From Plasmodiophora brassicae (taxonomy: Eukaryota): DNA of 64,000 nucleotides. Shown here one piece after another: positions 22,273 through 57,354 of this stretch (position 1 is the first letter of the stretch; every line of letters starts with the position of its first letter). The position numbers were made by a program, and so were the translations under genes. Under the pieces are notes generated by a model. The model was not told the origin of the DNA. It made no database searches and was given only the letters and a program-made list of their open reading frames with translations. Where the stretch lies: NCBI GenBank assembly GCA_036867785.1, contig CP145411.1:1736001-1800000 (forward strand). Direction: 5' to 3'.

Positions 22273-22537
22273 GCAGCCCGGCCACGCACCACAACGCAGT
22301 GCCGCCCGCCCACCCGAATTCAAAATGAGCCGCCGACCCGTGTGGGCCACTGCCCAACGGGCGATACACACTACGCAGCTGCAGCTCGCGAGTCGGGCGG
22401 GGCCGAACGCAACAGTCGCCGCCGTTTGCAGTCGCGACAGGCACAGCAGCTTCTCCGTGGCACCACAGACGAGACAGAGCGACCCCCATGACACGTGTGT
22501 CTGCATTTTCGACGGTTCGGTTGCCTGACGTCCGCGC

Positions 22538-24011
22538 TTACTGCACGGCGACGCCCGCCATGATGTCCAGCACCTTCTCGTACGCGCTGTCGTAGACATG
22601 CGGCGACAGCGGCGCGTCGTGGTCGTTGCTGTGCCCGGCGTCGTTGTTCACCGTAGCGAACCCGACGCGAGACCCGCCCACGTCGAAGATCGTGTAGTAC
22701 TGGCGGATGAACGTGTCACCTGGCGGCGTCTAGGTCGTTAGCAGGCGGTCATCGCACGACACGTTGGGGCGCTGTACCGAGGATCCACAGGGGTCCCATG
22801 GGCGCCGGGATGTCCATCCCTATCAGGCCGAGGACGCAGACGGGGAACCCGTACACCTTCACCTTCATCAGGTACTGCCTGCCGGACAGGCTGAACTTGC
22901 GGCCGCCAACTGTGACCTGGAAGTCGGGCAGCGAGTCCGCCTGCGAGCACGACAGGATGTACGTGCCGCCCGCTGGGCTGGCGAACGCCCCGATGTCGTT
23001 CGCGAACGCGTCCACCTCCGCTTTGGGCCCGGCGATCAGCGACGTCCCCGTGTCGACAATGGCCTGCCGGGTCACCATCGGTCAGGCAACCGGATACGTA
23101 ACACTGTCGACGGCGCCCCAGCGGACCGTTGTGCAGGCCGACGGGCGCCCTTCCGGCCCCAGCGAGTCCACGTCGAGGACCCAGTACGTCTCCTTGGCCA
23201 GCGTCGCCCACGTGATGTCGCCCTTGAAGTGCGCCCGGTCGTACCCGCCGAGGACGAGCTCACCGGTCTGGCCCGGCTTGCTCGGCAGGTAGAACGCGAA
23301 CTGGTTCCTGGCGATCAGCCTCTGCTCCCAGGCGCGCTGGAACACGGGGTCCAGATCGTCCACGCTGATGGACCGGAACGCCATCCCGAGTATACCGTCG
23401 AACTTGCCCTGCTTGAAGGCCTCGCCGGGTTCGTCGGTGGCCTCGGCGAACTGGACGTTGCCGATCTGGAGCCCGCCCCACGTGACCACGTCGGTGCTGA
23501 CGAACCCGCTGAGCGACCCGCTCCCGTAGTGGATCTCGAACCGGGTCCCGTTCGCCCTGTACGTGGCCGACCGCGTATGGTCGTACTTGGCGTGGTTGCA
23601 ATCGGGGCACTTGCTCGACGGGACCCACAGGTTCGAGCTGCCCGTGTCGAAGATGACTTTGAACGTCTGGCCGGGCGTGCCGATGTCCACGTTCCCGTAG
23701 TACTGCGCGTTCATGAAGTCCTGCAGAGGGACGTACGGCGGGTGCGACACGCCGTACTTGTCGTACCCGCTGTACGCCTGCGCCCCGGCCGCACCCTTCG
23801 ACACGTGGTGCAGGGCGATACGAATCGTCCCGTCGTCGTTCCGGATCGGCGCGGCCGCATCCAGCCTCGCGTGCGCGTCGTTCGCGTCAGCGAAGAACTG
23901 CCGGATGCCGGCCAGCAGGTTCTCCAGGCGGGCGTCGGCGCACGCAGACGCCACCAGCACGGCAACCACGACACCCGCCGCCAGACGCGTTCGTGACGAC
24001 GTCATCGTCAT
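22538..24011 (-). CDS. Pepsin-family (A1) aspartic protease, cathepsin D-like, with signal peptide
   Basis: DFMNAQYYG, IFDTGSSNLWVPS, KFDGILGMAF, AIVDTGTSLIAGP, LWILG|DTFIRQYYTIFD; two introns. Confidence 0.93.
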
Positions 24012-24364
24012 CGGTTCGGGGGGGCGATGTCGAAAATGGGTCCCCCAGCCCTCGCCACTGGCGACGTCCCGCTGGCCACCCGGTAACGTGTGTCGTGACG
24101 CCTGACGGGTGCCGGCAGGTGACCGACTGTCGCGGGTATCGTTGCACCTGGACGAGGCCGTCCCCGTCGCAATTCGCAGCCGTCTGCTGGGCGTACAGCA
24201 AAGCAACCGAAACGGGGCGGGTGTTCGTACAGGAGCTCGCCTTGACTGGCCGTCTCGACCGCCGATGCAGCAATACGTGTACAACGAAGGGTACCCGTGT
24301 TCGCGAAACACCGAGGTCGTATATAGTCCATGCAACGTTATACAACGCAGCGCGAGTTCGCGGG

Positions 24365-25141
24365 TCAGCGGTTGCGTCTGAACTGGGGCGTCTTCGGCTT
24401 CTTCTCGCCCATTCTGGGCGCCATGTACGACGTGTTGCGGGTGTAGACCACGTACCGGGCGTTGTCCTTCAGGTGCCTCATCGACGTGACCTTCAGGGTC
24501 GGCTCCTTGATCTTGACCAGGGCGGTGCCTTTGCCCTTCAGGTACCGTTTCAGGTCGTCGTCGGACGCGATGACCACCGACTCGAAGGCGTCGTCTTTGG
24601 CGAGCGGGTCGGGGTTCGGCACCTGGACCAGAATCGTGCGGATCCGGGGGATAATGACGAGAATGGGCCAGAACGACGACGACCGCAGCGACGTCACCGG
24701 CAATTCCATCTTGACGTATACGCTCTGCTGCGCCGACGTACACACCTGCAGCTGATCCATCTGGAACTTCTGCAGGACGCTCGACTCGGTCCAGATCTTC
24801 TTCCGGAACGCCGCCACCGTCTCGCTCGTCGCCAGCGACACCGTCTTCGCCTGGTCGGCCGGGTTCAGCGGCGTCCGATCCGCGTCAACCAGCAGGTAGA
24901 AGACCTTCGTCTCTAGGCACACACACTCCACCGTCAGCGCACGGGGCACGCCGCCCGACGACCACATACATCGCCCACCATTCGGTTTATCCGCGGAAGC
25001 GTGCCGCCCGGACGCGACACTCGATAGCAGTCTGACGGACACGGCTGCGGGACCATGCCGACACCGGACGACGGCCGCGTACTGGACACGCGCCCGCAAC
25101 GTGCTCGCCACGGCTCCGAGCAGCGACGCGGCGGTGCTCAT
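24365..25141 (-). CDS. Protein with a Crinkler-like ubiquitin-like N-terminal domain behind an Arg/Ser/Ala-rich leader
   Basis: VFYLLVDAD..TVSLATSETVAAFRKKIW..DQLQV..PILVIIP pattern; one probable intron near 24915-24970. The family assignment is by eye. Confidence 0.5.
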   Translation of the reverse strand: MSTAASLLGAVASTLRARVQYAAVVRCRHGPAAVSVRLLSSVASGRHASADKPNGGRCMWSSGGVPRALTVECVCLETKVFYLLVDADRTPLNPADQAKTVSLATSETVAAFRKKIWTESSVLQKFQMDQLQVCTSAQQSVYVKMELPVTSLRSSSFWPILVIIPRIRTILVQVPNPDPLAKDDAFESVVIASDDDLKRYLKGKGTALVKIKEPTLKVTSMRHLKDNARYVVYTRNTSYMAPRMGEKKPKTPQFRRNR

Positions 25142-25379
25142 CGACGCGCGACCGGCAACTGTTGTCGGCGCCCGCGATTTGAACTGCCGCCGCCGCCCGC
25201 TGCGACTGCGGCGGACCACCGCGCCTCGGACAGCCAGTCGGCAGCGCGTCGGACAGCGACTGGGGCGACGACCTCGGACAGGCCACGTGGGGGGCCGCCT
25301 GCCAACTGCAGCTGCGGCAGGACGGGGGGTGACATGACACGTTCGGTGTTTTCTTCTCCTGGGGGCCAACGGGGGGAAT

Positions 25380-25523
25380 CGGGTTGCAGTCCCCTGTCAG
25401 AATGCCTTCGGGACGGGTTGCAGTCCCCCGTCAGAATTGTTTCGGGACGAGTTGCAGTCCCCCGTCAGAATGCCTTCGGGACGGGTTGCAGTCCCCCGTC
25501 AGAATGCCTCCGGGACGGGTTGC
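25380..25523. repeat. Tandem repeat, about 4.2 x 34 bp (CGGGTTGCAGTCCCCCGTCAGAATGCCTTCGGGA)
   Basis: Units start at 25380, 25414, 25448 and 25482, with a partial unit at 25516. Confidence 0.95.
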
Positions 25524-25555
25524 GGTGGCCGGGCGCTGACGACGGACGGGCGGCG

Positions 25556-27223
25556 ATGGATCAGGTCGGGGCGGGCGCGCTGGTGTACGCCCGGGGCGAT
25601 ACGGAGGGCGACCGCCGGGCGAAGATGGTGGCGGCCATCGAGCGCCTGCCCGTGTACTGGCTGGCGCGGCGCTCCGTCAAGGAGATGTGCATGCGGCAGT
25701 CGGTGGCGGATACGCAGGCCGACGCCGGGGCGCTGCTGGAGGCGTCGCCGATGGCGTGCCAGCTCCGCAGCCTGATCTACGTGCTCGACCGGGCCGCGCA
25801 GGCCACGCTGGAGATGAAGACCGCGGGCGACGCCGACCTGTACGAACCGTTGGAGTTCGTCGAGGCCGTCCGATTGCAATGGGACACGCGGATGCGGTAC
25901 CAGCTGAGGGCGTTCGCCGCCCAGCAGAAACGCCCGCTGATCGCGCCGCGGTCCAAATCAAGCGCCGCGCGCGATGACGTCGCCGAACCGTTCCCGGCGC
26001 ACCTCGTCTTCTCCTGGGCCGACCTGCTCAGCGATCTGGAGAACCTGGTCAACCCGAACGCGACAGCGACCTTCTCCAACCTGAAGGGGTTCGGTCTCAT
26101 CAAGCTGTCGCTGAAGACGCCGTCCCTGGCGACGCTACGGGAGCGGTACCGACAGCTGAGCCCCGACGTTCGCCATGTCGGCCTCGACGACGAACTTGCC
26201 GGGCTGGAATGGTTCCGCAACCAGCGGTACGTCGAAGGGGAACGCCTGCTGAACGACGCGCAGACGACCGTCGCCGACCTGATGAGGTACGCGCAGACCG
26301 GCGTACCGGCATCGCTTCGTCCCCGGTTCTGGAAGCGGATCCTGGGCGTGTGGACGTCGGATCGCGATGTCGCGTACTACGAGCGGCTCATCACGCAGGT
26401 TCGCCGCTGGGAGCTGATCACCGACGACCTGTACCGGCTGGAGGTCCAGGAGACGACCGACAACGCCGCCTACTTTGTGTTCGAGGACATGCTCGACGAG
26501 ATCATGCTGGCTTTCAGCCGGGATTCGTGGCTGCCCAAGAACAGCACGCTGCCGTTGTGCCTGGCGCCGCTCACGACGAACGTCTTCTCGGAGGCGGCCG
26601 TCCCGGGCCGCGACGACGGCGCCGGGTACCCGTTCGCGGATGCGAACGGCAAGCTGTCCCCGTCGCTGGTGGAGAATTCCGGCATCGAGATCGACGACCA
26701 GGGCACGGCAACGATCCCGCCGTGCGGCGTGGTCCCGTTCCACCATCAGGTGATGCTGGCGGCGCCGCTCTGCTACCTGTTCCAGCGCTGCGAGCACACG
26801 TACTTCGTGTTCCGGCACATGTACGCCAGGTACTTCTGTCGCCTGCATACGATCAGCTCGCGGCCGGGCACGATCCTGCACCTGTGCAAGCTGTTCGAGG
26901 ACCTCGTGCAGTCGCGTAGCCCGCAGGTGTTCTACCATGCGGTCGAGGTGGGCATGCCGCCGCTGCGGGTCGTGTTCCCCTGGCTGTTCACAGCGTTCTC
27001 CGGGTACCTGGCCGTCGACCAGGTGCTGACGCTGTGGGACCGCATCCTCGCGTACGACTCGCTGGAGCTGCTCGCCATTCTCGCCAGCGCCATCTTCCTG
27101 TTCCGGTCAAAGTCGGTGCTGAACGCGACGTCGAGCGACGAGATCCGCGACATCTTCGAGGACGGCATCTACTTCCGGGTCATGCCCCTGCTCCAGCATT
27201 TCCTGTTCGACTCCAGCCGATAA
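25556..27223 (+). CDS. TBC1D19: TBC domain protein TBC1D19-like (intronless)
   Basis: YFVFEDMLDEIMLAFSRD, PPCGVVPFH, FRHMYARYFCRLHTISS, AFSGYLAVDQVLTLWDRILAYDSLELLAILA. Confidence 0.85.
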   Translation: MDQVGAGALVYARGDTEGDRRAKMVAAIERLPVYWLARRSVKEMCMRQSVADTQADAGALLEASPMACQLRSLIYVLDRAAQATLEMKTAGDADLYEPLEFVEAVRLQWDTRMRYQLRAFAAQQKRPLIAPRSKSSAARDDVAEPFPAHLVFSWADLLSDLENLVNPNATATFSNLKGFGLIKLSLKTPSLATLRERYRQLSPDVRHVGLDDELAGLEWFRNQRYVEGERLLNDAQTTVADLMRYAQTGVPASLRPRFWKRILGVWTSDRDVAYYERLITQVRRWELITDDLYRLEVQETTDNAAYFVFEDMLDEIMLAFSRDSWLPKNSTLPLCLAPLTTNVFSEAAVPGRDDGAGYPFADANGKLSPSLVENSGIEIDDQGTATIPPCGVVPFHHQVMLAAPLCYLFQRCEHTYFVFRHMYARYFCRLHTISSRPGTILHLCKLFEDLVQSRSPQVFYHAVEVGMPPLRVVFPWLFTAFSGYLAVDQVLTLWDRILAYDSLELLAILASAIFLFRSKSVLNATSSDEIRDIFEDGIYFRVMPLLQHFLFDSSR

Positions 27224-27252
27224 ATAGAGCTATTTGCTATGTATGGTCATGG

Positions 27253-27921
27253 TTACTGGTGCGCGCCGATGTCGCGGAGCAGGTCCTCCCCGAGCAGGTC
27301 CCGCCACTTGGCCGCCTTCGCGACGATCGGGTTCTTCATCGCGTGCGCCGGACTGGAACTCGGCAGCCGTACGACGCGAACACCCGGTCGGCACTGCTGT
27401 TTCGTGAACAGCTGGTGAGCCAGCGACCCGTTGCAGGCGACGGTGCGGATCGACGCATGCTTCTGCAGGAGCTCAGCGATGGGGTTGGCCAGCACGTCCT
27501 TAATGTCGGCGTCGGCGCTGCCTCGCCGGGCAAACTGCCCGCAGATGTCCCACAGGGCGATCCGGTGCCGTTTCAGGTGCGCCAGCCGGTCCTCGTACGC
27601 AGCGGAAACGTCGAGGCCGATCAGTTCGCCCAGGATCGGCCAGAAATGGTTGCTCGGGTTCCCGTAGTACTGCTGGCGCTGCAGTGCGATGACGCTGGGT
27701 GCCGACCCGACAATCAACAGGACCGGGTCGGCGTGCGGCTCCCCGGGGCTGGCAATCACAGGGGCGAACGACGCCGCCAGCGACGGCGCCGCGCGACGCC
27801 CAGCCTGATACCTTTGCAGCATCCTGCCCGCCCGTCTCTTGATTGGATTGGAAGCAGCGGCGTCGTCGGCGGCGGCGACGGCTTGCTCGCTGGCCGGCCG
27901 TTTCGTCCCGATGCGGTCCAT
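27253..27921 (-). CDS. UDG superfamily family-6-like hypoxanthine (deoxyinosine) DNA glycosylase
   Basis: LIVGSAPSVIALQRQQYYGNPSNHFW, IALWD, VACNG, LPSSSPAHA; intronless, with a basic N-terminal extension. Confidence 0.8.
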   Translation of the reverse strand: MDRIGTKRPASEQAVAAADDAAASNPIKRRAGRMLQRYQAGRRAAPSLAASFAPVIASPGEPHADPVLLIVGSAPSVIALQRQQYYGNPSNHFWPILGELIGLDVSAAYEDRLAHLKRHRIALWDICGQFARRGSADADIKDVLANPIAELLQKHASIRTVACNGSLAHQLFTKQQCRPGVRVVRLPSSSPAHAMKNPIVAKAAKWRDLLGEDLLRDIGAHQ

Positions 27922-28052
27922 CAGTCAGGGAAAAACTGCGTGGCTACCGACCGCGCACTGGCGCTGGACCCTCCGGGGCGACATGCGCCATTCAACGCGC
28001 GCCTTACATAGCCAGCAGAGTCGTTCATAATAATAGTAGTAGTAGACGGTTG

Positions 28053-29948
28053 TCACCATGCCGGCTCGGTAAGCCTGTCGAGCTGCTCGACCAGCGCCTT
28101 GACGATCCGGGCAGGGACGGACGGCCATTCGGCGACCTGGCGCTTGACGATGCCGCGTTTCAAGTAGAAGTGGGCCCGAACGGCGTCGGCGAACTCCGCG
28201 TACGGGTTCGCCAGCGCGTCCGTCATCGCCCAGCGTATTGTGCTCGGATACAGGTTCCTGTTGTACTCGTTGCTGGCCTGCTCGCCCTGGCGGGACCCTT
28301 GCGACTCCTCGAACCCGGGCTCGTTGAAGTACGGCTTAGGGATGAAGATCAGGGCCTGCACCGAGACGACGACCTGCAGAAACGACGACGCCGCGCTCCA
28401 CCTCTCTGCCGCGCGACCTTCCCAGGTGCCCAGCAACGACAGGCACACCTTGCCGCAGTTGTACAGGTTCGGGTTGAACCGGACCGTGCCGCCGCCCGTC
28501 GTCCGCAGCAGCATCCTGGGCGGCTTCATCGGGTACGCGTTCGGGAAGAACACATCGAACACGAACGCGCCGTTGCTGTACGGCGTGCCGCTGGCCGGGA
28601 AGATCAGCACGCGAGCGAACCGCATGTCCATCTGGCTGGAGCGCACCAGGACGCACGACTCCTGGTTGACCGGCAGCGACCGGCGCAGCGTCGCCAGCTC
28701 ATGCGCCAGGCGCCGAACGACGGGCGCGCTCGGCGCCTCCTTCGCCTCCTTGCTGTCCTTGAACAGATGCTGCGGGAAGTCGTCCACCAACTGGAAGCGC
28801 TGCGCCTCCATGAACGTCTCGTACTGGGCGGCAGCCTCATCGTCCAGCAGGTACGACGCCGTCGGCGCCGCTGTCGCTTGCGCAGGCGTCTCCGCCTTCA
28901 GCGTCGAACCGTCCCGCTGGGCGTCCACCGGGCAGACGTCCAGCGTCGCGTGCGCCGCCGCCAGGATGTTCTCCACGATCCCGTTCCCGTCGTCGGCCTG
29001 CGATGACGACGTCGACTGAATCAGCAGGTGCGCGTCCTCAGCCTTTTGCTTCGCGCGACAACGTTCGTCAGGGCGGGCGACAAGCAATGGGACCAAACGG
29101 GCACGGTACCTTGAGGCCGGCGAGGGCGCCGTAGATCGACAGGCCGGACGGCGGTTCCAGGTAGCCGATCAGGTTCATTTCGTCGCGGGACGACAGGATC
29201 GTGCAGAGGCGCAGGGCGGCGAGCAGCGCCGAGTAGTACATCTCGGCCTCCAGCATCGAGTCGACGTCGAGGATCGTCGTCACGGCGACGACGATGTTGG
29301 ATTCGGTCAGCAGGTTCGCGATGAAGGCGAACGACGCCGGCGGGCACAGCTCGACCTGGTCGCAGAGCGTGCCCAGCTCGCCGGCCAGCTCGTCCGAGAA
29401 GGCTTTCTTCGTGCGGATCGTTTCGTTCACGTCAAAGTCTTTCGAGTGGCGATCGCCGTACCCGGTGCCCTTCGCCCAGGCGCTCGACGCGTCGCCGCCG
29501 TCGTGCGGGCGCTTGCGTGGGTGTGACGACGACGACGACGACGACGGTTCTGGATTCGTTGTCGTCTTGGCAACGGGGATGGCCTCCAGGGACGGCTGCT
29601 GCTGTTGGCGATTGTCAGGGTGTCGAGGCATGCGTCCGGTCAGGATCACAACGCGGTACAGGACGAGCTTGATAGTTTTGATGATACGTGGAGCGCTGGG
29701 GTGCATCAGCGACAGGTCTGCAAGCGAATCCGACATGCCGACCTCGTACCCTGGCGTGGTCTCCCAGGCATCCGGCGCCGCATCGCCGCCGTCATCGGCG
29801 TCGTCCCATCCGGCGCTGCACGCCCGGCAACCCGTCAGCACGCAAGCAATCCCAGGCGCGCACACACCATGCCTCACTCGTCCAAATCGACGTCGTCGTC
29901 CTCGACAAAGTCGCCCAGGTCGCGCTCGACGACCTCCATGTCTGCCAT
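28053..29948 (-). CDS. BIRC6/BRUCE-type ubiquitin-conjugating (UBC) domain protein
   Basis: WAKGTGYG, GTPYSNGAFVFDVFFP, TTGGGTVRFNPNLYNCGKVCLSLLGTW, PYFNEPGFE; several introns. Confidence 0.88.
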
Positions 29949-30145
29949 CGCGACCCGCCACGGAGATCGCAAATGCAGTTTCCGGGAACGTGCGGGCGCC
30001 ACTGTCATTTTCCGTCGAAATCTGCGTGGGATCGATCATGGACAGCATCGCTCTGGTTGCAGCGACAGCAAGCGGCCTCGCCTATGGGGCGCCGGCCGAC
30101 CGCAACGTATAATCATACCATTAGCGTTTTACAATACGGTAGGTT

Positions 30146-42649: not shown

Positions 42650-45600
42650 TCATGCCGAACTGGACTTGGAGCGTCGGAACATGGCAAAAGCATCATCAGC
42701 GTCGAGCGAGAAATACGCAGACGCATCCACCATCTTGCGGTCGATGAAGGTTCGCACGCGGTCAAGCACGGCGCAGTGCTTCGCGGGTGGCTGAATGTTG
42801 CAGGGCTCTTCAGACCGTCGCTTGCGCTCGGCGTTATGCGACTCCAAACGCTTTCTGAACCTCGCGATGTCGAAGAGAGACTTCAGGTACCGAACCTGAA
42901 GAGACAGGTCCCCGCTCTGGCCGGTAATGATTAGTCTAGCGTTTGCATTCAAAAGCGCCATGACAGACACGCTACCTTATAGATGATAGTCGAAGGAGAC
43001 TTGCAAGCGCTGCACTGAACAGCGTATCGCTCTCGATTGCGACACGAAACGTCTTCGCAAACGCTCCAGCCCTCATTATAAACAGCAACCTGGCGGGCAA
43101 ACAGAAGCCAAGCTTGCTTGATAATCATGGCGATTGACTGATCGTCCTCCAGAGTGCGGCCGCAGGTGCTTGAAGGGCATCTTAGACCACACTGCCCAGA
43201 GGCGAGATCAACGACGCCCTTGAACTCCCACCGGGTACGACAGGACGGGCACGCGATTTCCAGTTTGACCGTCTCCTTGAAAGCCTCGTCATCATCGAAA
43301 TGACGGAAACACACCGATGATTCAAACAGTTCCTACGAACGCTATCAATACGCAACACCAAGGTCAGCTCTACTGTATACCTGATTGGAGCCTACTGGTT
43401 GCACGACAGCCGAGGCAAACTTTGACTTGTCCAACCCGAGGCAGTCAGCGAGGTGCGCAGCGTCAGTTCCTTCAAGGTAGGCACACAGCCGAACGATTGG
43501 TGGTAGCACCTAAACATGATGCATTCGGGTATAAGGAGACGGCGGTGGCGCACTTCAGCGCGCATACCTGTTGGGCGAAATACCACTCAACGTCTATGGA
43601 TAGTTGTTGGGACACATCGAGAACCAATGAAGGATGATAGGCGCGCTGTGCCACAGACTGAAAACGGCTTCAGAAGGTTTGGAGGCGCCATTAGTGAACC
43701 GACCAACCTTGTCGCTAGAGGACTTGCAGATGACGTAGGGAATATGATCACCAACGCGGACAGGAAGCCCTTGCTGGGACATTTGCAGCGCCACACAGAC
43801 ATGAGGTTGGGATTTCGCGTCCGGATAATCCGATGGAGGCTTCGAGAGACCCTACGAAGACGCTGCTTAGAAAAGGATTTCCATGTTTCGTGGCAGAACG
43901 GCCAAACTTTGGTGATGACAAAATCATTAAGTGGGATCGTGTTGGTTCTAGCAGCCTCAGCAAGACGCGACAGGTAAGAGTGGATGGCGTCAACGCATTC
44001 GTCGCGAGAACTGCCGCTCAGGATGTTGTCGATGACGAACTCACTTGTACGCTTCGATAACGGGCACCAATCACGGCGAACCATTTCCAATCCACGCACC
44101 TGAACAGGACACTAATTACCAACAGGAACGCGATTAGGTATGTAAACATGTCCTTACTTCTCGTTTGCAAATGATTTCACCATCTCTTTCAGTCGCAACG
44201 AGAGCGGCGTATTTCTTCTTTTGCAGCAGCAGAAGCGCCTTGAACACGTAGTCAATCTCGATCTCCAAAGTCTTGTATAGCTTGTTAACAGACCCCTTGA
44301 TGTCGTTTCCAAGATGCATGACTCTGGATCGGGTGATTAGAGACAGCAAAGAACACACGATATCCTGCGTACTGCTTCCAGTCAGTTGACTGTGTCGATA
44401 CGCACACCGAATCCGTGTCTCCGTCTAAGGGAATCATATCGCCGTTATCAACACTATCGACGGAAACCCACTGCCAATGTTCCTACATATGACTTTGTGC
44501 CCCATAGACTCGATAAGTTCCACAGTACTGGAGAGAATGTGCCGTCCTTGGGAAGTAACCAGGGCTGCCAACGGTTTGCAGTAGAAGCGCGAATAGACGA
44601 ACCCGAGGCACCCGTACATGGAATTTGCGACGAGCTTCAAGGCCTGCGAGACGGGCGAATTAGTAAACAGAGACGCATGCTCGGGTCCACGTTATTGCCT
44701 GTTGACGTATATCATACTCTTGCCGCTTGACTGGGTTCTTTTCGTTTTTGAGCATCGTTTTCACGGATCGACGCCTGTCCACCAAACGGCGAATCACACG
44801 GGGAAGTATACCCTCCGGCGCTGAGGGGACAGGGAGACTAGCCATTCCATTCTCGTCCAGCTGTAGAGGAGTCAGCGTTCGACAAAATCACAAGAACTCC
44901 ATACTGACCTGCCAATGCTGAATGGTCGTAAAGCAAATGTTGAACTCCTGAATGATTGACGGATACAGGCTGTTGAAGTCAAGCATCAAAACATATTTGT
45001 CGTAGAACCCCTTTACAGGTTCCAGGACCAGGCCCCCGGAATACGCAGGCTTCCTTCTTTTAGAATTCGTCTACAACAGACACGTTGGAAGCCATACATT
45101 GCAAACGAGAGAAACAGCATCATACAGCTTCACTAGGTGGACACTCAGACTGATCTCGCTCCTGGCGTTCCTTGCGTGTGAATTTCTCAGGTACAATATA
45201 CCTGAAGGACGCCTGTTATGGCGCAATGATTGTGCAGAGCATACCTACACCTACTTGTTTCGATGAAACTCGTGAAGAAGAAGAAACTCAATGCGTTGAG
45301 CACGGGCCGACTGAAGAGACCGGGCCCAAGTATGTCCACCAAGACACGTAAGTTGCTTGCTCAGTGGCAAAACCTGACGTTTTTCGTTAGTAATGAGTTG
45401 AAGGAAGAGTCATTTGCGCAAACCTGTAGATGGAACATTAATCGTAGAGCCAGGTAGGCGTCATTGCCACAATGGCGAACGACTTCAATGATATCAGAAG
45501 TTGATAACATCATTTTCTCGACACAGATATCGTCGCGACTGAAACGTACGGAACCGTATCAGAGGGGGCCTTGACAATACAGCATACCCGATGATTAGCC

Positions 45601-48600
45601 TACCGGATACCAAGGACAACTTCCGATAGGTGTCCCAGGTCGTAGCTAGTTTCTTTTGACAAGACTTCCTTCGCGAACTGGCTAGTATCGCAGAAGAGTC
45701 GTCCCCCAGACACGGCAACAATTGAAGACATCCCATCGTTAGCTGCCTTCGTCCTTGGTTGACGACTCCGCCTTAGCCGACCCAGCTGCATCCCATTGTC
45801 AGGATCTTCGTGACGAGTAGCACGGAGTAGTACACACCTTAGACCATTGACCAATGTGATGGAATCCAATCCGGGAAAGGACAATATCCAGAGTTGCACT
45901 GCCAGACATTTGCGTCAACGTTTCGGAAGCAACGTAAGATATAAGCATACCCAAACAAGCCATGCCCAACTATAACGTCCGGATCGAGTGCATGCAGTCT
46001 TGCCAACATGAGCGACAGAAGCGCTCGCTCAGACGGGGAACATGTAATAGGTAGTTTCTGCATGAGACCCAACAAACCCAACGAATTAAACACGACCGGG
46101 TGCATTGTCACAATGGTACTGACGTTATGAGCGATAGTCGCAATGAGGTCAGGAGGCCATGACCCTCCAGACAGTGGTCGCACGATAGAGAAGGCCTCCG
46201 TTGGATCGGTTTGGTCAGTTGGTGAATCAACTGCGACGTCGTTGTGGAACAGGCCAGTAACAGCAACGATCTCATTGACGTGCGTATCGCTATTGAAGAC
46301 GCATGTGATATTAAGGGAAAGAACAGACACTGAGGGTGGAGGACGGTCTAAAGAACCCGTTTCAACGTTCCCCAGCCAAGACACGGATTGAATGACGAAT
46401 ACCTTCAATCTTTGTAACGTTTTTCGGAGAGCTGGTGGTAAACTCTGCCTTGCACCACGTGAGAGAAGCGGAGCTCTCAGTAACGTTCGTGATCCGCAGC
46501 CATTGAGGACCCATCAGATCGCGCTGCGCGTGAGAAAATTCAATACGCATGTTCAAGCATCAGACGGAAACCGTGTTCACCTTAAGCAAGAACAACTCCA
46601 ATGTCGAGGTTTTCGTTCCGAACACGTGCGAGAACGTCGTACCGCGTAAATCTCTAACCCATGTTCAGTACACAACGGTGGGCACCACACCGAGAGGCGG
46701 ACCGCGGTAGATCAGGGAGAGCGGCGGAATAGACGACCTTCATAACGTCCGCCTCAAGTGGTACCTTGCCGTCTAAGCACAAAGGAGTGTTTAAGCGCAA
46801 TAGATTGTCGAGATTCCAACGACTCTTACCCGGGTTGTCGAAATTGTACTTCCGTCGTACTGCAACATGAATACAAATTAGCGAAATGAACACATACAGA
46901 AGTTCCGACTGTCAGACCGAAATTTGTCGCCCAACGGGAGATGCCATGTTTACGAGCAATTTCCCCGAACTCTTCCCAAACCATTTTCGGTTCGACCTCT
47001 TGGTCAGTAACGCTGTTCTCATCATTAGCGTCTGGGCACACGTCTGATCAGATATCAGGCATCCAGTGTCGCCCCGCGGAGGCACTGACCAGCAAGAACA
47101 TGGGAACGTGGCCCGACGTAAACGTTGCGATCGATATTCTCAACAGTTATACAGCAGCTAACGAAACGATTTGGTTCGCTCTTGAGTGCCGTCTTGCCAA
47201 AGAGATAAACGCGGCCTGCGCGCAAGTAAGAACAAACGATTCGACGAGGTAGGTACGGATGTACAACCAGGGAGTTGCGGATCCTCGTACGCATCCAGCC
47301 AATAGAGTTCCAACGATCCAGAGTCATCAAGAAGGTTCGATACCTGAGACAAACCAGCTGTAAGTACAAGCGTGCAACGCTGCGCAACGAAGAGCTCAAC
47401 GAACATTGACAGAAGCAGGCGGACCCGTATTCGTCGCCTGATTTGCCGGCGCCTGTGCACCGCTTTGCATCCATGTCGAAGTCACCGTAGGCAGTGCAGA
47501 TGTAACAACAGCTGCGCGTTTACGATCAGTCATGCAAACGTTCAGCTGCTATGCAAACCTACGAGGAGGCGGAGCGATCGGAACTGCGGGTTCCGCTTTC
47601 CTGGTGACCACACCGTCTTCCTCGTGTGATGGCGGCAAACTGACAGACGCGTCATTGTTTGCATCCAGGGTTGCATCGCCATTGCCACTGGAATCCGCGT
47701 TCGCCGTCGACAGGACCTGTGTAGGAACCGTTTCCGGCAGCGCTACAGCAGGTGGCAACACGTCATGAGAATTTGGATGCCGTGATGCAGGCCTTTCTTC
47801 TTGGGAAATCGGCTTAGAAGCCTTAGTGGCCTGCGCGCGTCCTGAAGGTCGCCATCCAATGAGGGCTTAAATAATTCAGTAACGTTTGCAGCTTCATACC
47901 AACGCGCTCCATCGCTGCAGCCTGATGAACCTTCTCGATCTGATGCGCTTGCCCAAACAGTGCCAATTCTTGAGTGTCGATCGTGTCAGGCTGACAAGGT
48001 TGCCCATCATCATTGTCGTCCGGGTTCTCAAGCAGGTCATCTAGCAGGCTCTGATGTGCCATTTCCGTCTGAGCCAGGAGCCTACTCCACCGTTAGGTTC
48101 AGATACCCGTAAACGGTATGCCTGAGGGATGTTACGCAGCGGTAGATACGGGCTTGAGTTGATCAGGCTTTGGTGGCGCTTGTGGCAGGAACGCAGACGC
48201 CAATGGTTTCGCAGGGGCATCGGTCTGCATGCAAATTAATAACACGACAGCAGGGACGGCAGAATCCTTAAGAGGTACCTTGCGAGACCGTTTATGGGCT
48301 CGAGCGTTTACATTGGTCACTTCCTTATCGTCGGGATCCTCCTGCTCCCAGTCATCTTCTCCATTGTCAACGTATCTAAGTATGTGCGATCAACGACTAT
48401 CCATCATGTGAACAAACAGAACAATACGCACCCATGCCCGTCATCGACAATGAACGAATCACAGTTTCCGCGGCGCCGGCTCGATACGACACGATCATAC
48501 TCATCCTCGGATACCGATTCGTAGACGAGATCGTCGTTCAGCTGTGAGGCGCATGTCAGCAACGCACATGGCACCCGGGACCGCCACCCACCCACCTGCA

Positions 48601-48685
48601 GCTGGTCGAGCTGGCGCTTGCCTGTCTTCTTCGCGTTGGCGATGGCCACCAGCGCGGATGCCCGACGGTTGCCGTCCTTCGTCAT
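42650..48685 (-). CDS. POLA1: DNA polymerase alpha catalytic subunit (many introns)
   Basis: [85 protein letters not shown], and two C-terminal Cys clusters. Confidence 0.96.
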
Positions 48686-49265
48686 GAAACCCGTGCAGCA
48701 GCCAATGGACGGCGTCCCCCCAAAAATCGGACGCCCCCTCCCGCGCAAACCACGCTTTCGCGCGCGGTTCCGCTGGGTATACGAGAAGTTGCGCATGGAG
48801 TGAGTCGCATGCATGATGAAGCTGTCGCGAACAAACCACGTTCCTGTCGGTCTGCATGGCGTGCGGCAGTGTCGGCATAAGAGGCCACTCGGTTTCATAC
48901 AATAAAAATCCGATCGTTAATTGCAAGCGTTTGTTTATAAATTGTGGCATCGCTCTAGAGTGTCATGTTAAATCTGGCAGACGCGAAGAGAAGCACGACA
49001 CAGAACCACCGGGCCTCGTTATTGGTAACCGTGAGCTTCATCGGACGTGGCTGCACTCTGTTCTAGTAAACAACCGAATCTTGACTATTTATTGTCTTAT
49101 GCGAGCGTCTCGCGCACATGGATGCACGCAATCACATTCTGCGAACCGCATGATGCGGATTGTAGACGAATCTCTGGTTTTGAGGACGCATGTTCTGCAG
49201 CCACAGACAGGAAACGAAGTCTCACGAGTTCCAACATGTTTGCAAACCCCATGTCCGATGAAAGC

Positions 49266-51696
49266 TCAACGGGCACGAGACTTGTGGAATTCCGAGTACG
49301 ACTGCCGGAGTGTTTCACTGAGGCCCGGATGAACTCGCGATATGGCCGCATGGAGGTCGCCCATTTGCTAACATGGCGCAGTGAGTAAAACAGTAACAGA
49401 CAGTGGCGAATGTGAACGCACGACTGATTTGCTGTCGAGGTCTCGTCGAAGGGCGTTGATCGCAGCTTCACGGCAAACACTCTCGATCTCGGCACCCGTG
49501 TACCCCTTGAGTAATTCACACGATACGGCCTCGAGGTCAACGTCAGGAGCGAGCGGCATGCCTCGAGTATGCACTTCGACAATAGCGCGTCGCCCGAGTG
49601 CATCAGGTTCGGGAACCTGGAGATATCCAGGTAATCAGATGCCAGCAGCACCCAAATTGGGATCGACGGTTACGAAGACGATTTGGTCGAACCGACCGGG
49701 ACGAAGCAGGGCGTCGTCAAGCATCTTGGGGCGGTTTGTTGTGGCTACGACTAGGATCTGTGATGCGCTTCCGACCCCATCCATCTCATTCAGCAGAGTA
49801 GACAGCACCTACAGTTGAAACCTGAGTAACGTGCCATGGCAACAAAGAGCACGAACAAACTGACCCGACGTTGGACATTGTTGCCATCAGAAGCTGAAGC
49901 GCGATTAGTGACAATGGCGTCAATTTCGTCCAGAATGATCATGCACGGGGCATTATCACGAGCACGACGAAACACATCCCGGATGCATCGTTCCGCTTCA
50001 CCGACAAACGCGGAATACACGCGAGCCGGGTCCAGCAGCAGAATGGACCACTGGTCTGATGTACTTCCAACCAGCGCTCTGGCTAGGGTCGTCTTGGCGC
50101 ATCCAGGTGGCCCTAGAAAACGTTAGAACGGGCCTGGTACACAATCTACTCGACCTACCGTAAAGAAGGATGCCACGAGGACGATCGATGCCCATATGGG
50201 AATATACCTCAGGATACAGCATGGGGCCCTCGATGATTGTCCTCAGTGTCGTCTTTACACGATCAAGGCCGCCAATATCATCCCACTACATTGCCATGAT
50301 CAACGCTGCTGTCGGCGCGAGCATGAAATCATTACAAGACCTTCGCAGGCTTAACTGGCACGGCAAACTCCTTCCGAGATGACGACGCTGGGATCCGATG
50401 CAGTGCGCCGTTAAGGTCGTCATTACACACTTGCGTCCGTCCGTCACTTAGCGCCACAAGCGATGCCTCCTGGGCGACCTACAAACCGCATATAAGTACC
50501 AGAGACGCATGTGACAGCGCGCACAAGTCGGCAACCTGTCGCAGATCGGATCCAGTGTAGCCCACCGCCTTCGATGCACACATCTCGATCGCATCGGCGC
50601 CAACCTTCGGCAAATACAATGACAGGACGGCAGATCGTTGGGCAACGTCTCCAGCAGTAACGCCGATCTCGTAGTCAAATCGCCCCGGCCGCCTCAGTGC
50701 CAGATCGAGCGAGTCGACGTTGGCCGCCACGCCAATTACAATAGAGCCAGAGGCCGTAGCGCCTTGATCCATACAAACCAGAAGCTGCCCTAACAGTCTA
50801 CGGCGGTCCCGGTCCCGACCACCGATCGCATCGATGGCATCGATGACGATCACGCCGTCAAGGCCCACATGATCGAATACAGACACCAGCGCGCGTTCGG
50901 CAGCGCCAGGCGTTGCCATGGCAGACAGAGCTCTGCCATCAAGCCGAGCAACTTGTGTCTGGCCCAATTGGCACAGCGCAGAATCAACCAGCAATGTCTT
51001 GCCGGAACCACTCGGCCCATGCACGATGACGCCACGCGGACGCCAACGAGGGTCCAGAGACAACAACGACACCAAACGGGGGAAGGCGTCACCAAGCGCC
51101 TCAACTCTTTCAAACACGGCGCCGGTCTGGATCGGATGCATAACAGGCGGCTCTCGGCAAAGCACAATATTCGTCGATGAAGTGAGAATTACAGGCGACG
51201 CGGACGGTTTGCACGACTGGATGCGGCAGGGGACCGGAGGACGACCACGCCACAACACCAGCGACAACGTGGAGCCAGGTTCAACAACAACATCCTGGCG
51301 GTGAAGCGCAGATCGAAGAATGGAGGCGGAAAGCAACTCGAACTCATGGTCCGGAATGACGACATCCACGTGGAACGCGGCCGACAAGCGAGGCAGGGCG
51401 CGCAACACGCCAGGCATGCGCTGGGCATTCCGTCCAGGCAGGCAGTGATGCCCGGGGCTCGGAACCGACGACAGTACGATCACTTCGTCAACAGGCGACG
51501 TGGTCGACGACAACGGGATCGGATGCGCCGGGCCCAGCATGCGCCGCCCGGCCTCCGTCGTGAACTCGACGGCGGCGCCCAGCGCCATCTTGCCATTCGC
51601 GAACATCGAAGCGGGGACGAGGATGGCCCCGACGCTGACGACATCGTCGTGGTCGCCGGCGACGACGGCCACGCACGGCAGCGCTCCCGACGCCAT
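49266..51696 (-). CDS. AFG2/SPATA5L1-like type II AAA+ ATPase
   Basis: D1: GPSGSGKT and [10 protein letters not shown]2: [25 protein letters not shown] and [20 protein letters not shown]. Confidence 0.85.
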
Positions 51697-51734
51697 CCCG
51701 ATCCGACCAATTGCAGTCTGCGGAAAAGAAGGCC

Positions 51735-51806
51735 CTGAAACGCGAATCCGCGCCTGTTGCGGACTGTACACTGAAACGCGAATCCGCGCCTCGCACGGAC
51801 TGCACA
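51735..51806. repeat. 2 x 36 bp tandem repeat in a divergent promoter
   Basis: CTGAAACGCGAATCCGCGCCT...CGGACTGYACA at 51735 and 51771. Confidence 0.88.
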
Positions 51807-51875
51807 GTTTTCGTCCACAGTCCAGACGGCTGGCGAAGGCCGTGGGGCAGATTGTGCGTAGGGCGGAAGTGGTCG

Positions 51876-54800
51876 ATGATGGCGTCCGGTGCTGGCCCGG
51901 GCGAGGTCGTTGCGGGGGCGGCGACTGGCGCGTCGTCGTGCACGGTGCCGCAGCCTCCCGACGGCGCCGTCATCGGGTGTGGCCAGGAACACGACGCGCT
52001 GACCGTCTGCCACCCGTGGATGAACCTGGGCGTTGCCACGGTCGCCCAAGTACGTCGAATCGAAAAATCCCGCCCGCGTACGAATGGCTGATATGTGCTA
52101 GTTGAACGATTATATTCAGTCAGTGTTGCACGCCGAACCGCCTGTCTGCGAAGCCGTTATGGAAGACGTCGACAACGTCGCCCCGGTGCCGGTGTTGATG
52201 CCCGATCCCCGACGGCCTGTTGCGGAGGCGGCCCCGATTGAAACCGACTCTGCCCCGCAACCTGACAACGTGGACCACAATGCTGCCCCAGACGTGCAAG
52301 TCGTCCAAGCACAACGCGTCTATCCAGCTACGTATTTGGCACCCCCACCCGACCAGGTCCATTTCTTTCGTCTTCGTCTGGTTGACCGAGTTTATCGATT
52401 GTGTTTCACGTCATTCTCGATATTGCGCTTGTCAGAAACCTTCCGGCTTGACTAACATGTGGCACCCGGGGGATTGTCAGAACGTGGACGTTGCCCGGCT
52501 CCAGTTCTACCAGCAGACGGCGTCGATCCTGGCACCGAGCACGTTGCAGGCAGCGTCCATGTCCGTGGCCAGCATGGTGGTCAGCGACCCGAACCTGCTC
52601 GATTCCGTAACGCGCGTCATGTGCCTGGCCACCCTGTTCTGAGCTAAACGTGCTGCCGTTGCTGCCTGCTGGCCTCAGGTGCGATCCAGTGCCGTTGCCT
52701 GTCGGGCGCCACAGCCACCCGATGGCCGATGGCTGGGCTGCGGCCAGGCTGAGCACTATCCAGTCTGCTGTCTAGCGTGGGCCCAACAAGTACGGGCAAA
52801 TGCGGGTGTCGTACTTGCCAGATCAGTGCTGACGCGTACCCAGGGATTGACGCATGCGGACCAGATACAGCCGTACCTCAAGCAAGTCAACGCTGGCTTA
52901 GCGTCGACAGCAGCGCTGTCGGGAAACCGACTATGCTCCATGCGGCAACCGCCCGTGGCCGGGCAAACAGGAGCGCTGCGCAAAGGCTGTGGCCAGGCGG
53001 CACACCCCGACCAAGTCTGTGCCAGCTGGCTGGCGCAGGGCGTGTTCACGCTGCTGGAAGCGCGCCAGAAACTTCTGGAATGGAAGAAGCAGACCCCTGC
53101 GCAGACTGTCAAAAGCGAGCCCAGGTCGTCTAACTTCTCACGAAGACGCCCATTGCGATGTGCTCTGACCGTACAATGTCAGGGTTCGTAAACGCCCTGA
53201 CCGGGATCGATGTATCGTGCCGCAGCCTCCGGACGGCGCTGTTCGCGGATGCTCTTCGTCAGGCCATCATCGTGGCGAGGTGTGCGACGCCTGGAAGGGC
53301 CGAGGAATCACAACGTTCCCGGAGATTCGCGAGTTCCTGATGAACTGGCACAAGGACCATCCGGATTCGAACCGGAAGCCATGCACCTTCGTGCAGCCGC
53401 CGGACGGCGTGCTTCGCGGGTGTGGTGCTCCTCATCACAAGGGCCGGGTGTGCGGGTCGTGGGCCGAGCACGGTATCCTGTCGAGGCAGGACGCTCTGAA
53501 CAAGCTTCGCGAGGACAAAGGCGACACGAAGGTCAAACTGTTCAAGTCCAGGTCGGATGCTGAAAAGCTGTGCAACCTGCCGCAGCCGCCGGACGGGCGG
53601 GTCATCGGATGCGGCGAACCGTTCCATCGGATGAACGTGTGCGATAGCTGGGTGGCGTTCGGCGTGCCAAACCGTGAAGGTGTTAAGGTACCTGGTCTCG
53701 TCCGTGCTCTGTCGCGTTCTGCTGCATGTAACGGCGCCCTGGTTAGACGTATGTGGACAAGTATCGCAGTGATCATGGCATCACTGGGACTCTGGCGAGA
53801 GTATGCCGTGCGCTTCAACCACCTGATGGGCGCATTAAGGGTTGCGGTCTCGGATGGCATCGTGGTGCTTGCCCTACCTGGAAGGTCGACGCTGTCAACT
53901 TGCAGCGTGACGCCGTTTCATTCTAATCACACGCTTCTGTAGGCGCTTGGCCTTAATGATCGTAAGTCCATGCAGGAGTACATACGGTCGTTCATCAGCA
54001 AGTCGGATGGGCCGTCGGACGGCGACAGGCTGATTGGCCCACAAACCCGGTCTAGCCACCTGGGCATATCCCGTGTCAGCAAGTTTCCCGAGTTTAGTCA
54101 GGATCGAGATAGCAGCGTGCGCCTGTTCCTGGAAGGCGACTTTGACCGATCCGTGCACGAGCTGACGAAACGGTCAGGTGTTTGGACCACTTTTTATCGG
54201 CGTTGTTTGCTGACGTCCGTCGCAGGATCCGGAAGGATCCCGACAATGCCAAGCTGTACAACAACCGAGGCGTGGTGTATGCCGAGCGCGGCTGGCCTGA
54301 TCTGGCTCTTCGTGACTGGGCCAAGGCCGTCCTGTTGGACCCGTCGTTGGCGGACGCGTACGCCAATCGCGCCCTGGGACGCGTCGGCGTATGCAAACCC
54401 GTGCTGGCCTCGGATGATTGCAAATCGGCCATGGCTTTGCTGCGTGACGACCCGGACGAGGACGTCCTCATGACCCTGGCCATGGCGTTGTACGAGACTG
54501 GCGACTTTGACGGCTGCCTAGCGGAGTGTACCAAGGTGCATGGGGGTGCTCAGGGTTGCCCCTAGGAACGTTGCCCCCCTGACCGTCCAACACAGGTTCT
54601 GGACATATCGTCGGATTCCGTCCAAGCCAGGACGTTGACGGGATTGGCGTACGGTGCCAAGAAGCAATACGTGGACGCAGCGGAAATGTTCGAAGCCGCC
54701 CTGGAGCTGTCTCCTGACAATGCGCGCCTGTCCCAGCTGCTCGGCCTAGCGCGAAAGAAACTGGACCCGAACGCGGCGCCCTCGGGGGACGCGGACCAGC

Positions 54801-54988
54801 CCGGGAGAGCGCCGTCCGCCAGCGGCAGCGTCGTCGGGAGCGACCAGGAAACGCTGAGCGACTTCGACCAGTCCGACCTGGACGACGACGCCATGCCCCT
54901 GGACGACGACGACGAGTTCGACCGGCAGTCGAACGCCGCGGAGGACGACGACACGCTCAGCGACGAGGTCACCGATGACGACGGCTAA
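51876..54988 (+). CDS. Protein with seven Cys/His QPPDG repeats, TPR repeats and an acidic C-terminal tail
   Basis: Repeats begin at about 51939, 52700, 52934, 53211, 53382, 53571 and 53804. In-frame splicing links repeats 6 and 7 to TPRs (LYNNRGVVYAERG, AYANRALGR) and a D/E-rich tail. The 5' junctions were not all checked. Confidence 0.75.
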
Positions 54989-55405
54989 CAGCGCTCTACC
55001 TAGCATGGACACAGTACAGGAGCGTCCCATGTATTTATCGATGCCGTCAGCCCTTTTACCGATGCGCATCCGCGTCACATCCATCAGGCGTACGTTCGGC
55101 GCAGGCCCAGTTGAGGATAGTATCTGGGCAGGAGCCGCTGGAAGGCCCCCCTGGCCGCTGTGATGAGCAGCAGGCAGCACCCGGCACGGGTCGTCGTTCG
55201 TCACAGGGTATCGGACGCGCGTCGAGATCGGCGATTGGGCAATAATTCTCGATTCGCTCTCGAGGCCCACAGACGCCACACGCGACTCCAGAAGTACGGT
55301 CGAAACGTCGTCCGAGAGGCCCGCGCCTGGCTGCCACACTGTTCCAGACGTCGTTCGCGTGCCTGCCTCGGGAGAAGTCCCCCGTTGGTCCAGCGCGGGT
55401 GGGCG

Positions 55406-57354
55406 ATGCCCGGCAAGCAACGGTACCGGTTCCTGTTCCTCTGCGATGCGTTCAACTCCATGTGCCAGCGCGCCATGCTGCGCCTGGAGGCCCAGGGCCA
55501 CCAGGTCGTCGTGCACATCGCGCGGTCGCCCGCCGGCATGATCCAGGCGGCCGCGGTGCACGACCCGGACATCATCCTGTGCCCGTTCCTCACCAGGCGC
55601 ATCCCGTCCGACCTGTACCGGGACACGGCCCGCCCCTGCTGGTACGTCGACGGCGACCATCGCAGAGTGTGTCGGCTGACGGAAACGCTCCCCTCCGTTG
55701 TCGCGCAGGATCGTGCACCCGGGCATCGAAGGCGACCGCGGGATGTCCTCCCTGGACTGGGCTCTGCAGGGGCGGAGCCCCGTCTGGGGCGTCACCATCC
55801 TCCAGGCGGACGACGTGATGGACGCTGGACCGTATGCCATTCGCCACGTTCCGTTTGTCGTTCGACGTGACCCGGGTTGTTGTTCCTGGCGTAGGGTCTG
55901 GGCCACGACGACGTTCCCGGTTCGGCCCGGCGCCACCAAGTCGGGCACGTACCGTCGCGAGTGCGTCGACGCCGCCATGGCGTGCCTGGACGCCGCCCTG
56001 GCGTCGTTCGCGGGCGGCGGGCGCCCGCGGCCGGCAGCGCAGGACGGCCCGGGCCGGGCCCGACCGCGCATGACGCAGGCGGATCGCCGCATCGACTGGG
56101 ACGCCATGTCCGCCGACGAGATCGCCCGGCGCGTCGCGGCCGCCGACTCCCAGCCCGGCCTGGAAGCCGTCCTGCCGGGCGCGTCGGCGCCCGTGTCCCT
56201 GTTCAACGCGTGCGTCGCCCGCGACTGGCGCCCGTCGTCGTCGGGCCCCGCGTCCGGGTCGCTGATCGCGCTGCGCGACGACGCCGTCCTGATCGCCTGC
56301 GAGCGCGGCCGGTCCGCCGTCTGGATCGGGACGATGCGGGTCGGGCGCAACGGCATCAAGGTGCCGGCGCGCGACGCCCTGGCGGCGGTGACGCGCGACG
56401 ACGACGACGCGGTGACGCGGCCGTGTCGCCCGGTGCGGGCGTCGCCCGGCCTGTTCGTCGAGTTCGGCAGGGCGCCGGACGGGTTCCAGGAGGTGTACGC
56501 GTGGAGGCACCCGCGCGCCGACGACGTCGTGTTCCTGTGGTTCGACTTCTACAACGGCGCCATGTCGACCCGGCAGTGTCGTCGCCTGTGCCGCGCGCTC
56601 GACAATCTCCTCGACGGGACGTCGTCGCCGCCGCCGCGCGTCCTGGTCCTCATGGGCGGCCCCGGGTTCTTCTCCAACGGCATCAACCTGAACACGATCG
56701 AGGCGTCCGCCGACCCGGTCGCCGAGTCGGCGGACAACATCGTCGCCATCGACGACGTCGTCGAGCGCGTCCTGCACGCGACCGGGACCGTGACGGTGTC
56801 GGCCCTGATGGGCAACGCGGGCGCCGGCGGCGCCATGATGGCCATCGCCGCCGACCATGTCTGGGCGCACGCCAACTCGGTCCTGCTGCCGTCGTACGCC
56901 AACATGGCGCTGTTCGGCAGCGAGTACTGGACGTATTCGCTGCGGCGCCGGGTCGGCCCCGACCTGGCGCGCTCGCTGGCCCTGGCGGGGAGGCCCGTGT
57001 CCGCCCACGAGGCGCACCGCATCGGCCTCGTCGACCGCATCGTCAGCGACGACGCGCACGGGTTCGTCGACGCCGTTGCCGATCACGCCGGCGACCTGGC
57101 CGTCGACGTGGAGGCGTTCCTGCGGCGCAAGGCGGCAGCGGCGCCGGCGGAACAGCGACGCATGCGGTCAGTGAGCGCTGTCTAGGCGTGTGTGATGCTC
57201 CATCGGTGCCCGGCTGACCGGCCGCGCCACCCTACGCAGGCTGTGCCGGCGCCTGGAGCTGATGCACATGTACGACTGCTTCCGCAGCGACGAGTACGCC
57301 GCGCGCCGACGCGACTTCGTGTACAAGTCGGCGGCCATGCCCTGCCGCAAATGA
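55406..57354 (+). CDS. hypX: HypX/HoxX-like enzyme (formyltransferase domain + crotonase domain)
   Basis: FLCDAFNSMCQRA, PDIILCPFL, IVHPGIEGDRGMSSLDWA, WGVTILQADDVMDAGPVWA, FDFYNGAMST, FFSNGINLNTIE, GNAGAGG, SYANMALFGSEYWTYSL, RRDFVYK; three GT-AG introns. Confidence 0.92.

Follow-up and report, generated by a model that had tools for sequence, protein, structure and literature searches.

A 64,000-nucleotide stretch of the genome of the clubroot pathogen Plasmodiophora brassicae (contig CP145411.1, positions 1,736,001 to 1,800,000, forward strand; here called the window) carries a gene whose protein joins seven copies of an undescribed cysteine- and histidine-containing module to tetratricopeptide repeats (TPRs) and an acidic tail. 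The gene lies at 51876–54988 on the plus strand, running from an ATG at 51876 to a TAA at 54986–54988, and its 10 exons encode 840 amino acids (aa). The gene itself is known, being already in GenBank as a TPR protein; the Cys/His repeat is unannotated there and represents an undescribed conserved domain family. We give about an even chance to the reading that the modules are one-zinc Cys3His mini-domains, set like beads on a string in an intracellular P. brassicae scaffold protein.

Each module spans about 45–55 aa and, over the seven copies, follows the pattern C-x3-QP(P)-x5-10-GC-x3-5-H-x3-5-C-x2-W-x3-G, after which comes a helix. Alignment of the seven modules of the annotated protein, P0005, leaves C, Q, P, P, G, G-C, C, and W invariant. 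Two further proteins, P0002 and P0003, bring the number of modules to 13, and C1, Q, P, G-C2, C3, and W are invariant in all of these even though the three proteins are only 26–28% identical overall. The first two cysteines are separated by 12 residues, or 17 in module 3, and a glycine stands at +4 from the tryptophan in at least 70% of the 13 modules. Exactly three cysteines are present in 10 of the 13. The loop between the second and third cysteines holds a histidine in every one of the 13, 3–5 residues after Cys2 and 3–5 before Cys3; the Cys2–Cys3 distance is 8–10 residues, so the histidine spacing is not fixed. An earlier sequence-only reading of this DNA had drawn a consensus with invariant C, C, H, and C. 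Its three cysteines and tryptophan stand as invariant, while its histidine spacing needs correction. The seven repeats quoted in that reading are all found on the plus strand as written, spread over three frames, in a three-frame translation of 51600–55100, and the break marked in its seventh repeat is the position of an intron (53885–53942). Introns interrupt modules 1, 2, 6, and 7 at no single fixed position within the module.

A profile built from the seven repeats recovers exactly 7 domains in P0005 (55–81 bits), 3 in P0002 (39–51 bits), and 3 in P0003 (23–49 bits). This profile was also run against the window in six-frame translation (1394 segments). Scores came only from the four exon segments in which the seven repeats lie, the next-best segment standing at 6.5–7 bits with an E value of at least 0.2. 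The seven-module signal is far beyond chance.

The spliced coding sequence from the window (2523 nucleotides [nt], 10 exons) translates into a protein that is letter-identical to P0005 (SPQ95247.1 / A0A3P3Y4Z1, 840 aa), which was reached with the three-repeat exon as query and carries the name "Tetratricopeptide repeat" in GenBank and UniProt. A second database model of the gene, P0006 (CEO98184.1, PBRA_006298), is older and has 866 aa, with 26 extra residues at the exon 2/3 junction, where intron 2 (52357–52480) lies. Evidence on the gene model comes from 20 public runs in 10 studies, in which at least half of the sampled words of the gene stretch are present. The RNA status of these runs is a guess (the label is "RNA?"), with no run on record as RNA, and reliance is placed on spliced contigs instead. 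Word coverage is 70–75% in 19 of the 20 runs, near the exonic fraction of 2523/3401 nt, and 99% in one.

Four runs (X2, X3, X8, and X15) were examined for splice joints. All nine introns are joined by contigs in X2 and in X3, which come from different studies; in X8, from a third study, the same nine are joined collectively across separate contigs. The run with 99% coverage, X15, has zero splice joints and appears DNA-like. The junctions in the spliced contigs of X2, X3, and X8 agree with the 840-aa protein and not with the 866-aa model, and no sequence differences from the window gene were seen in any of the four runs. Modules, TPRs, and acidic tail share one spliced contig and one continuous open reading frame (ORF). 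Some contigs extend beyond the gene: record 6 of X3 reaches about 2.3 kb upstream of 51700, and record 5 of X2 reaches about 0.9 kb past 55100. Overruns of this kind into the neighbours show that adjacent transcripts overlap or abut in a compact genome; they do not imply co-transcription.

The part of the protein that follows the modules gives clear matches to known families, and on these aa 584–768 can be taken as a genuine TPR domain. Pfam TPR_2 reaches 56.7 bits (cut-off 27), TPR_11 55.3 (26.8), and TPR_1 48.7 (27.8), each with three stretches that all fall within aa 591–752 of P0005, and TPR_17 is also above its cut-off. All 44 PDB sequence matches of P0005 lie inside aa 554–767, among them consensus TPR, OGT, Hop/STI1, RPAP3, and SGTA, and the NCBIfam matches are to TPR families only. 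The fusion of the repeats to TPRs that the sequence-only reading proposed is borne out by these scores, as is its acidic tail (aa 769–840, net charge −23), and the single transcript that it needed for repeats and TPRs is supported by the nine bridged junctions. No Pfam match was found in the linker between modules 1 and 2 (aa 62–189). Modules 2–7 (aa 190–550) are basic, with a net charge of +21 and an isoelectric point (pI) of 9.4. No signal peptide, hydrophobic N terminus, or membrane-like stretch was found in P0005, P0002, or P0003, where the maximal Kyte–Doolittle value over a 19-residue window is 1.17–1.46.

Relatives of the module are few. A phmmer search with the three-module exon as one sequence against 1.84 billion representative proteins (E ≤ 0.001) gave four matches: the window's own ORF, P0002 (457 aa, E 9e-19), P0003 (444 aa, E 3.5e-11), and P0004 (E 9.6e-5). 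P0002 and P0003 were found in Logan assemblies only. Both carry three modules, alignable with modules 5–7 of P0005, and then a region alignable with its TPR part, so the P. brassicae protein has four extra N-terminal modules. The first module of P0002 begins at residue 5. The C termini of both proteins lack the acidic tail and end instead in short basic stretches, which we take to resemble nuclear-localization signals. The fourth match, P0004, is a Sushi protein with 12 Sushi stretches. It was rejected as a relative: it has no module-profile match at E ≤ 10 despite its phmmer E value, its hhalign probability is 2.5% over 25 columns, and the Sushi/CCP family (PF00084) has no Pfam match on the modules.

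Other collections were searched with little gain. Beyond the annotated P. brassicae protein, word-indexed protein searches turned up nothing but P0008, a generic TPR protein (E 5.7e-3); one of these searches missed P0002 and P0003, which makes blanks from word-indexed searches weak evidence. The ESM Atlas gave no usable match and no stored model. In a scan of JGI metagenomes, tblastn retained 1 of 82 pattern matches. This candidate, L001, was rejected as a chance CTYPQPPDGRV string: the module motif is not complete in any reading frame, a different frame looks open through the region, and the contig was read as bacterial-like. A scan of prokaryote genomes gave 41 pattern matches and 0 confirmed. 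Since the word-indexed, JGI metagenome, and prokaryote scans added nothing real, the module family is very narrow in the collections searched. No publications naming PBRA_006298 or the module motif were found, papers mentioning QPPDG being judged unrelated from their titles or the starts of their abstracts, and listings of the broader P. brassicae literature held nothing relevant to the repeat gene.

No described family or fold in Pfam, NCBIfam, or the PDB matches the module, in keeping with the earlier remark that its spacing was unfamiliar. Exon translations gave no Pfam match to the module at E ≤ 1. When all seven modules and all three full proteins were searched at E ≤ 10, no zinc-finger match appeared save AZUL (PF16558) on P0002. 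That match, at E 0.15 and 12.7 bits where the cut-off is 23.8, is confined to P0002, with 0 of the 7 window modules, and was treated as chance; a significant Pfam domain on the modules, which would have spoken against their novelty, was thus not found. The retroviral-type CCHC zinc knuckle (PF00098) has the spacing C-x2-C-x4-H-x4-C. It was rejected on the Cys1–Cys2 distance of 12 residues (17 in module 3) and the lack of a PF00098 match. Among PDB sequences, the best match of the module profile had an E value of 0.22 and none was accepted; the ShK domain of MMP-23 (E 0.22) and Caskin-1 (E 0.27), the best of them, were rejected.

Structure prediction gave a partial picture. The AlphaFold2 (AF2) model of module 4 (57 aa), made from the seven-row repeat alignment, has a mean predicted local distance difference test score (pLDDT) of 81.9; values are 70–78 across the Cys-rich half and about 90 for the helices. 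The model predicts a small hairpin bridge, a helix at residues 30–34 that starts at Cys3 (Cys3-x2-Trp), and a 14-residue helix at 40–53. A three-module model from a three-row alignment is of low confidence (mean pLDDT 50.9) and has the short-then-long helix pattern in each module. For the module 4 model, Foldseek against the PDB gave a best E value of 6.1, and VIA-align against 48,161 representative chains gave a best Z of 2.2, with none on a second look; for a 57-residue model of medium confidence, this absence of a fold match is no proof of a new fold.

We infer zinc binding, an intracellular location, a ligand, and a role for the tail from these features. Each module would be an autonomous mini-domain of about 45–55 residues with one tetrahedrally bound zinc ion, the ligands being Cys1, Cys2 in a Gly-Cys-Gly knuckle after the QPPDG turn, the loop histidine, and Cys3. 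The third cysteine would open a short helix bearing the invariant tryptophan, with a longer amphipathic helix next. Three things suggest metal binding, namely the conserved residues, the count of three cysteines, and the lack of a signal peptide. An odd number of cysteines does not allow complete disulfide pairing within a module, and with the histidine the three make up a Cys3His set. The lack of a hydrophobic N terminus or membrane stretch points to a reducing compartment, the setting in which clusters of Cys and His usually serve as metal sites.

The rest of the protein suggests an adaptor, to which the basic modules 2–7, the TPR platform, and the acidic tail all point. Modules 2–7 could act as a basic array that binds a polyanionic or repeated ligand, for example nucleic acid or an acidic protein, while the role of the C-terminal TPR domain would be to recruit a partner peptide. 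The acidic tail could fold back on the basic array and mask it. The partition of charge (+21 over aa 190–550 against −23 in the tail) supports this arrangement, and the order of modules followed by a TPR region is kept in P0002 and P0003. The nucleic-acid- or chromatin-binding adaptor proposed by the sequence-only reading finds a weak hint in this same opposition of charge between modules 2–7 and the tail.

Several observations weigh against the zinc mini-domain reading. Histidine spacing is looser than in most zinc fingers. The modest pLDDT of the Cys-rich half and the low score of the three-module model add to this; the zinc assignment is a matter of pattern, since no zinc-finger family or fold matches. 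A uniform nucleic-acid-binding role is weakened by the acidity of modules 1 and 2 and of the first module in both P0002 and P0003, and the absence of the acidic tail from P0002 and P0003 means that tail-based regulation is not a family feature. A bolder form of the proposal, which we consider unlikely, makes the module an undescribed zinc finger class with its own fold, restricted to a narrow protist lineage (P. brassicae and the sources of P0002 and P0003). Its basic multi-finger array would bind nucleic acid or chromatin and be coupled to the TPR recruitment platform, with gating by the acidic tail in P. brassicae.

The modules could also do without metal. They would then be structural or peptide-binding repeats in which cysteine, histidine, and tryptophan pack a small hydrophobic core, forming an extended scaffold of the TPR type. 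The variable position of the histidine, the absent zinc-finger family or fold match, and the more confident prediction of the helical half than of the Cys-rich half all fit such a picture. It is nonetheless rather unlikely, given that a chemical role is otherwise hard to avoid for three cysteines kept invariant in 13 modules of such diverged proteins, and that domains as small as 30–35 residues are seldom stable without metal or disulfides. Disulfides are indeed another option. Secreted proteins of plant pathogens often carry tandem Cys-rich repeats, and there is a faint likeness between the N-terminal half of the module and the beginning of a Sushi/CCP domain (P0004). The cysteines might be redox-active or engaged in disulfides between modules or molecules, in a thiol-based or an extracellular, adhesive, or effector-like repeat. 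We regard this as quite improbable. None of the three proteins has a signal peptide or hydrophobic N terminus, TPR domains are typically cytosolic, most modules have an odd cysteine count (three) plus a conserved histidine, and the Sushi likeness is at chance level in hhalign, with no profile or Pfam match.

A different cofactor on the Cys3His set, such as an iron–sulfur cluster or nickel, is highly improbable. Such a ligand set also occurs in some [2Fe-2S] proteins of the CDGSH/mitoNEET class, and tandem Cys/His modules could serve as metal stores or carriers. This proposal would tie the handling of a metal or cofactor to the next gene on the same strand, which is a true HypX/HoxX homologue. 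Against this, no Pfam CDGSH, Fe–S, or Ni-binding family appears at E ≤ 10, and the ligand order C, C, H, C is unlike the CDGSH motif. Gene adjacency in eukaryotes carries little functional information, and no publication was found on Plasmodiophora together with HypX.

Table 1. Features of the repeat/TPR gene and its protein, in window positions.
Feature	Position	Strand	Remarks
Exons 1–5	51876-52049, 52102-52356, 52481-52606, 52679-52789, 52844-53124	+	Spliced translation is P0005
Exons 6–10	53183-53687, 53747-53884, 53943-54172, 54226-54535, 54596-54988 (TAA)	+	Spliced translation is P0005
Introns 1–5	52050-52101, 52357-52480, 52607-52678, 52790-52843, 53125-53182	+	GT..AG; contig joints
Introns 6–9	53688-53746, 53885-53942, 54173-54225, 54536-54595	+	GT..AG; contig joints
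Module 1, aa 19–61	51930..52110	+	Profile 70.2 bits; holds intron 1 (52050-52101)
Linker between modules 1 and 2, aa 62–189	52111..52690	+	Acidic, Pro/Ala/Val-rich, net −11; introns 2 and 3
Module 2, aa 190–234	52691..52879	+	Profile 60.3 bits; holds intron 4 (52790-52843)
Module 3, aa 250–302	52925..53083	+	Profile 71.4 bits; 5-residue insertion after QPP (QPPVAGQTG)
Module 4, aa 323–371	53202..53348	+	Profile 81.5 bits; AF2 mean pLDDT 81.9
Module 5, aa 379–427	53370..53516	+	Profile 80.4 bits
Module 6, aa 443–485	53562..53749	+	Profile 75.4 bits; holds intron 6 (53688-53746)
Module 7, aa 501–544	53795..53984	+	Profile 55.0 bits; holds intron 7 (53885-53942)
TPR domain, aa ~584–768	54102..54769	+	About five TPR motifs; Pfam and PDB matches; introns 8 and 9
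Acidic C-terminal tail, aa 769–840	54770..54985	+	72 aa, net charge −23, pI 4.05

The window is eukaryotic in character, with short GT–AG introns, protein kinases, a RabGAP-TBC protein, a GT61 glycosyltransferase, and about 60% GC. GC content varies along it, from 0.49–0.54 at 44–50 kb (44001–50000) to 0.65–0.67 at 22–30 kb (22001–30000) and 0.71 at 56–58 kb. The repeat gene had been placed directly upstream of hypX on the same strand, and the downstream gene is indeed a genuine HypX/HoxX homologue (55160–57185, plus strand). Its ORF covers 55698–57185, and the N-terminal part lies in another frame on an upstream exon, which indicates at least one intron. Over residues 4–451, it matches the solved chains 6J0P and 6J1F with an E value of 2e-70 and has the Pfam domains Formyl_trans_C and ECH_1. 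The GC content of this locus is 65–71%, above the window average. On the other side, 104 nt separate the ATG of the repeat gene from the end of a divergent AAA-ATPase ORF (50479–51771, minus strand; Pfam AAA, E 8e-19), so the shared upstream region is very short. No functional link is seen between the repeat gene and either hypX or the AAA neighbour.

If the zinc mini-domain reading is true, the catalogue would gain a new family of small metal-binding domains, possibly with a new fold. At 45–55 residues the module is an expressible target for structural work. The cell biology of P. brassicae, an obligate biotroph, is scarcely characterized, and the repeat protein is one of its few intracellular proteins that are both conserved and restricted to the lineage. 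Protist genomes commonly contain orphan Cys-rich repeats, and with a single-copy orphan gene the wider impact would be modest unless a ligand is found.

Comparison with known systems places the module beside several domains of similar composition. In the TPR part the likeness is strong, P0005 matching an engineered consensus TPR at E 4.8e-36, OGT at 2e-20, and Hop at 6e-13; these scaffolds, like RPAP3 and SGTA, are without N-terminal Cys/His modules. The AZUL domain of the E3A ubiquitin ligase shows a weak local likeness to module 1 of P0002 (GCG-x-E-H-x4-C-x-S-W and the start of a helix), although the placement of the fourth ligand in the AZUL layout would differ from that in the module. Sushi/CCP domains share a C-x2-P-x3-(N/D)G start and a conserved tryptophan after a later cysteine. 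They have four conserved cysteines in about 60 residues, whereas the module has three, is about half that length, and comes without a signal peptide. There is also a resemblance to small zinc modules of CCHC composition, in which three cysteines and one histidine likewise fall within about 30 residues and which share the knuckle-like Gly-Cys-Gly turn, the tandem arrays in intracellular proteins, and the helix after the last ligand. The spacing of the module, C-x12(-17)-C-x3-5-H-x3-5-C, is nevertheless unlike the patterns of the PF00098 knuckle, the MYT1-type C2HC finger, and the UBZ4/LYAR-type CCHC finger, and the invariant QPP(DG) turn and C-x2-W-x3-G are features of the module and not of those classes.

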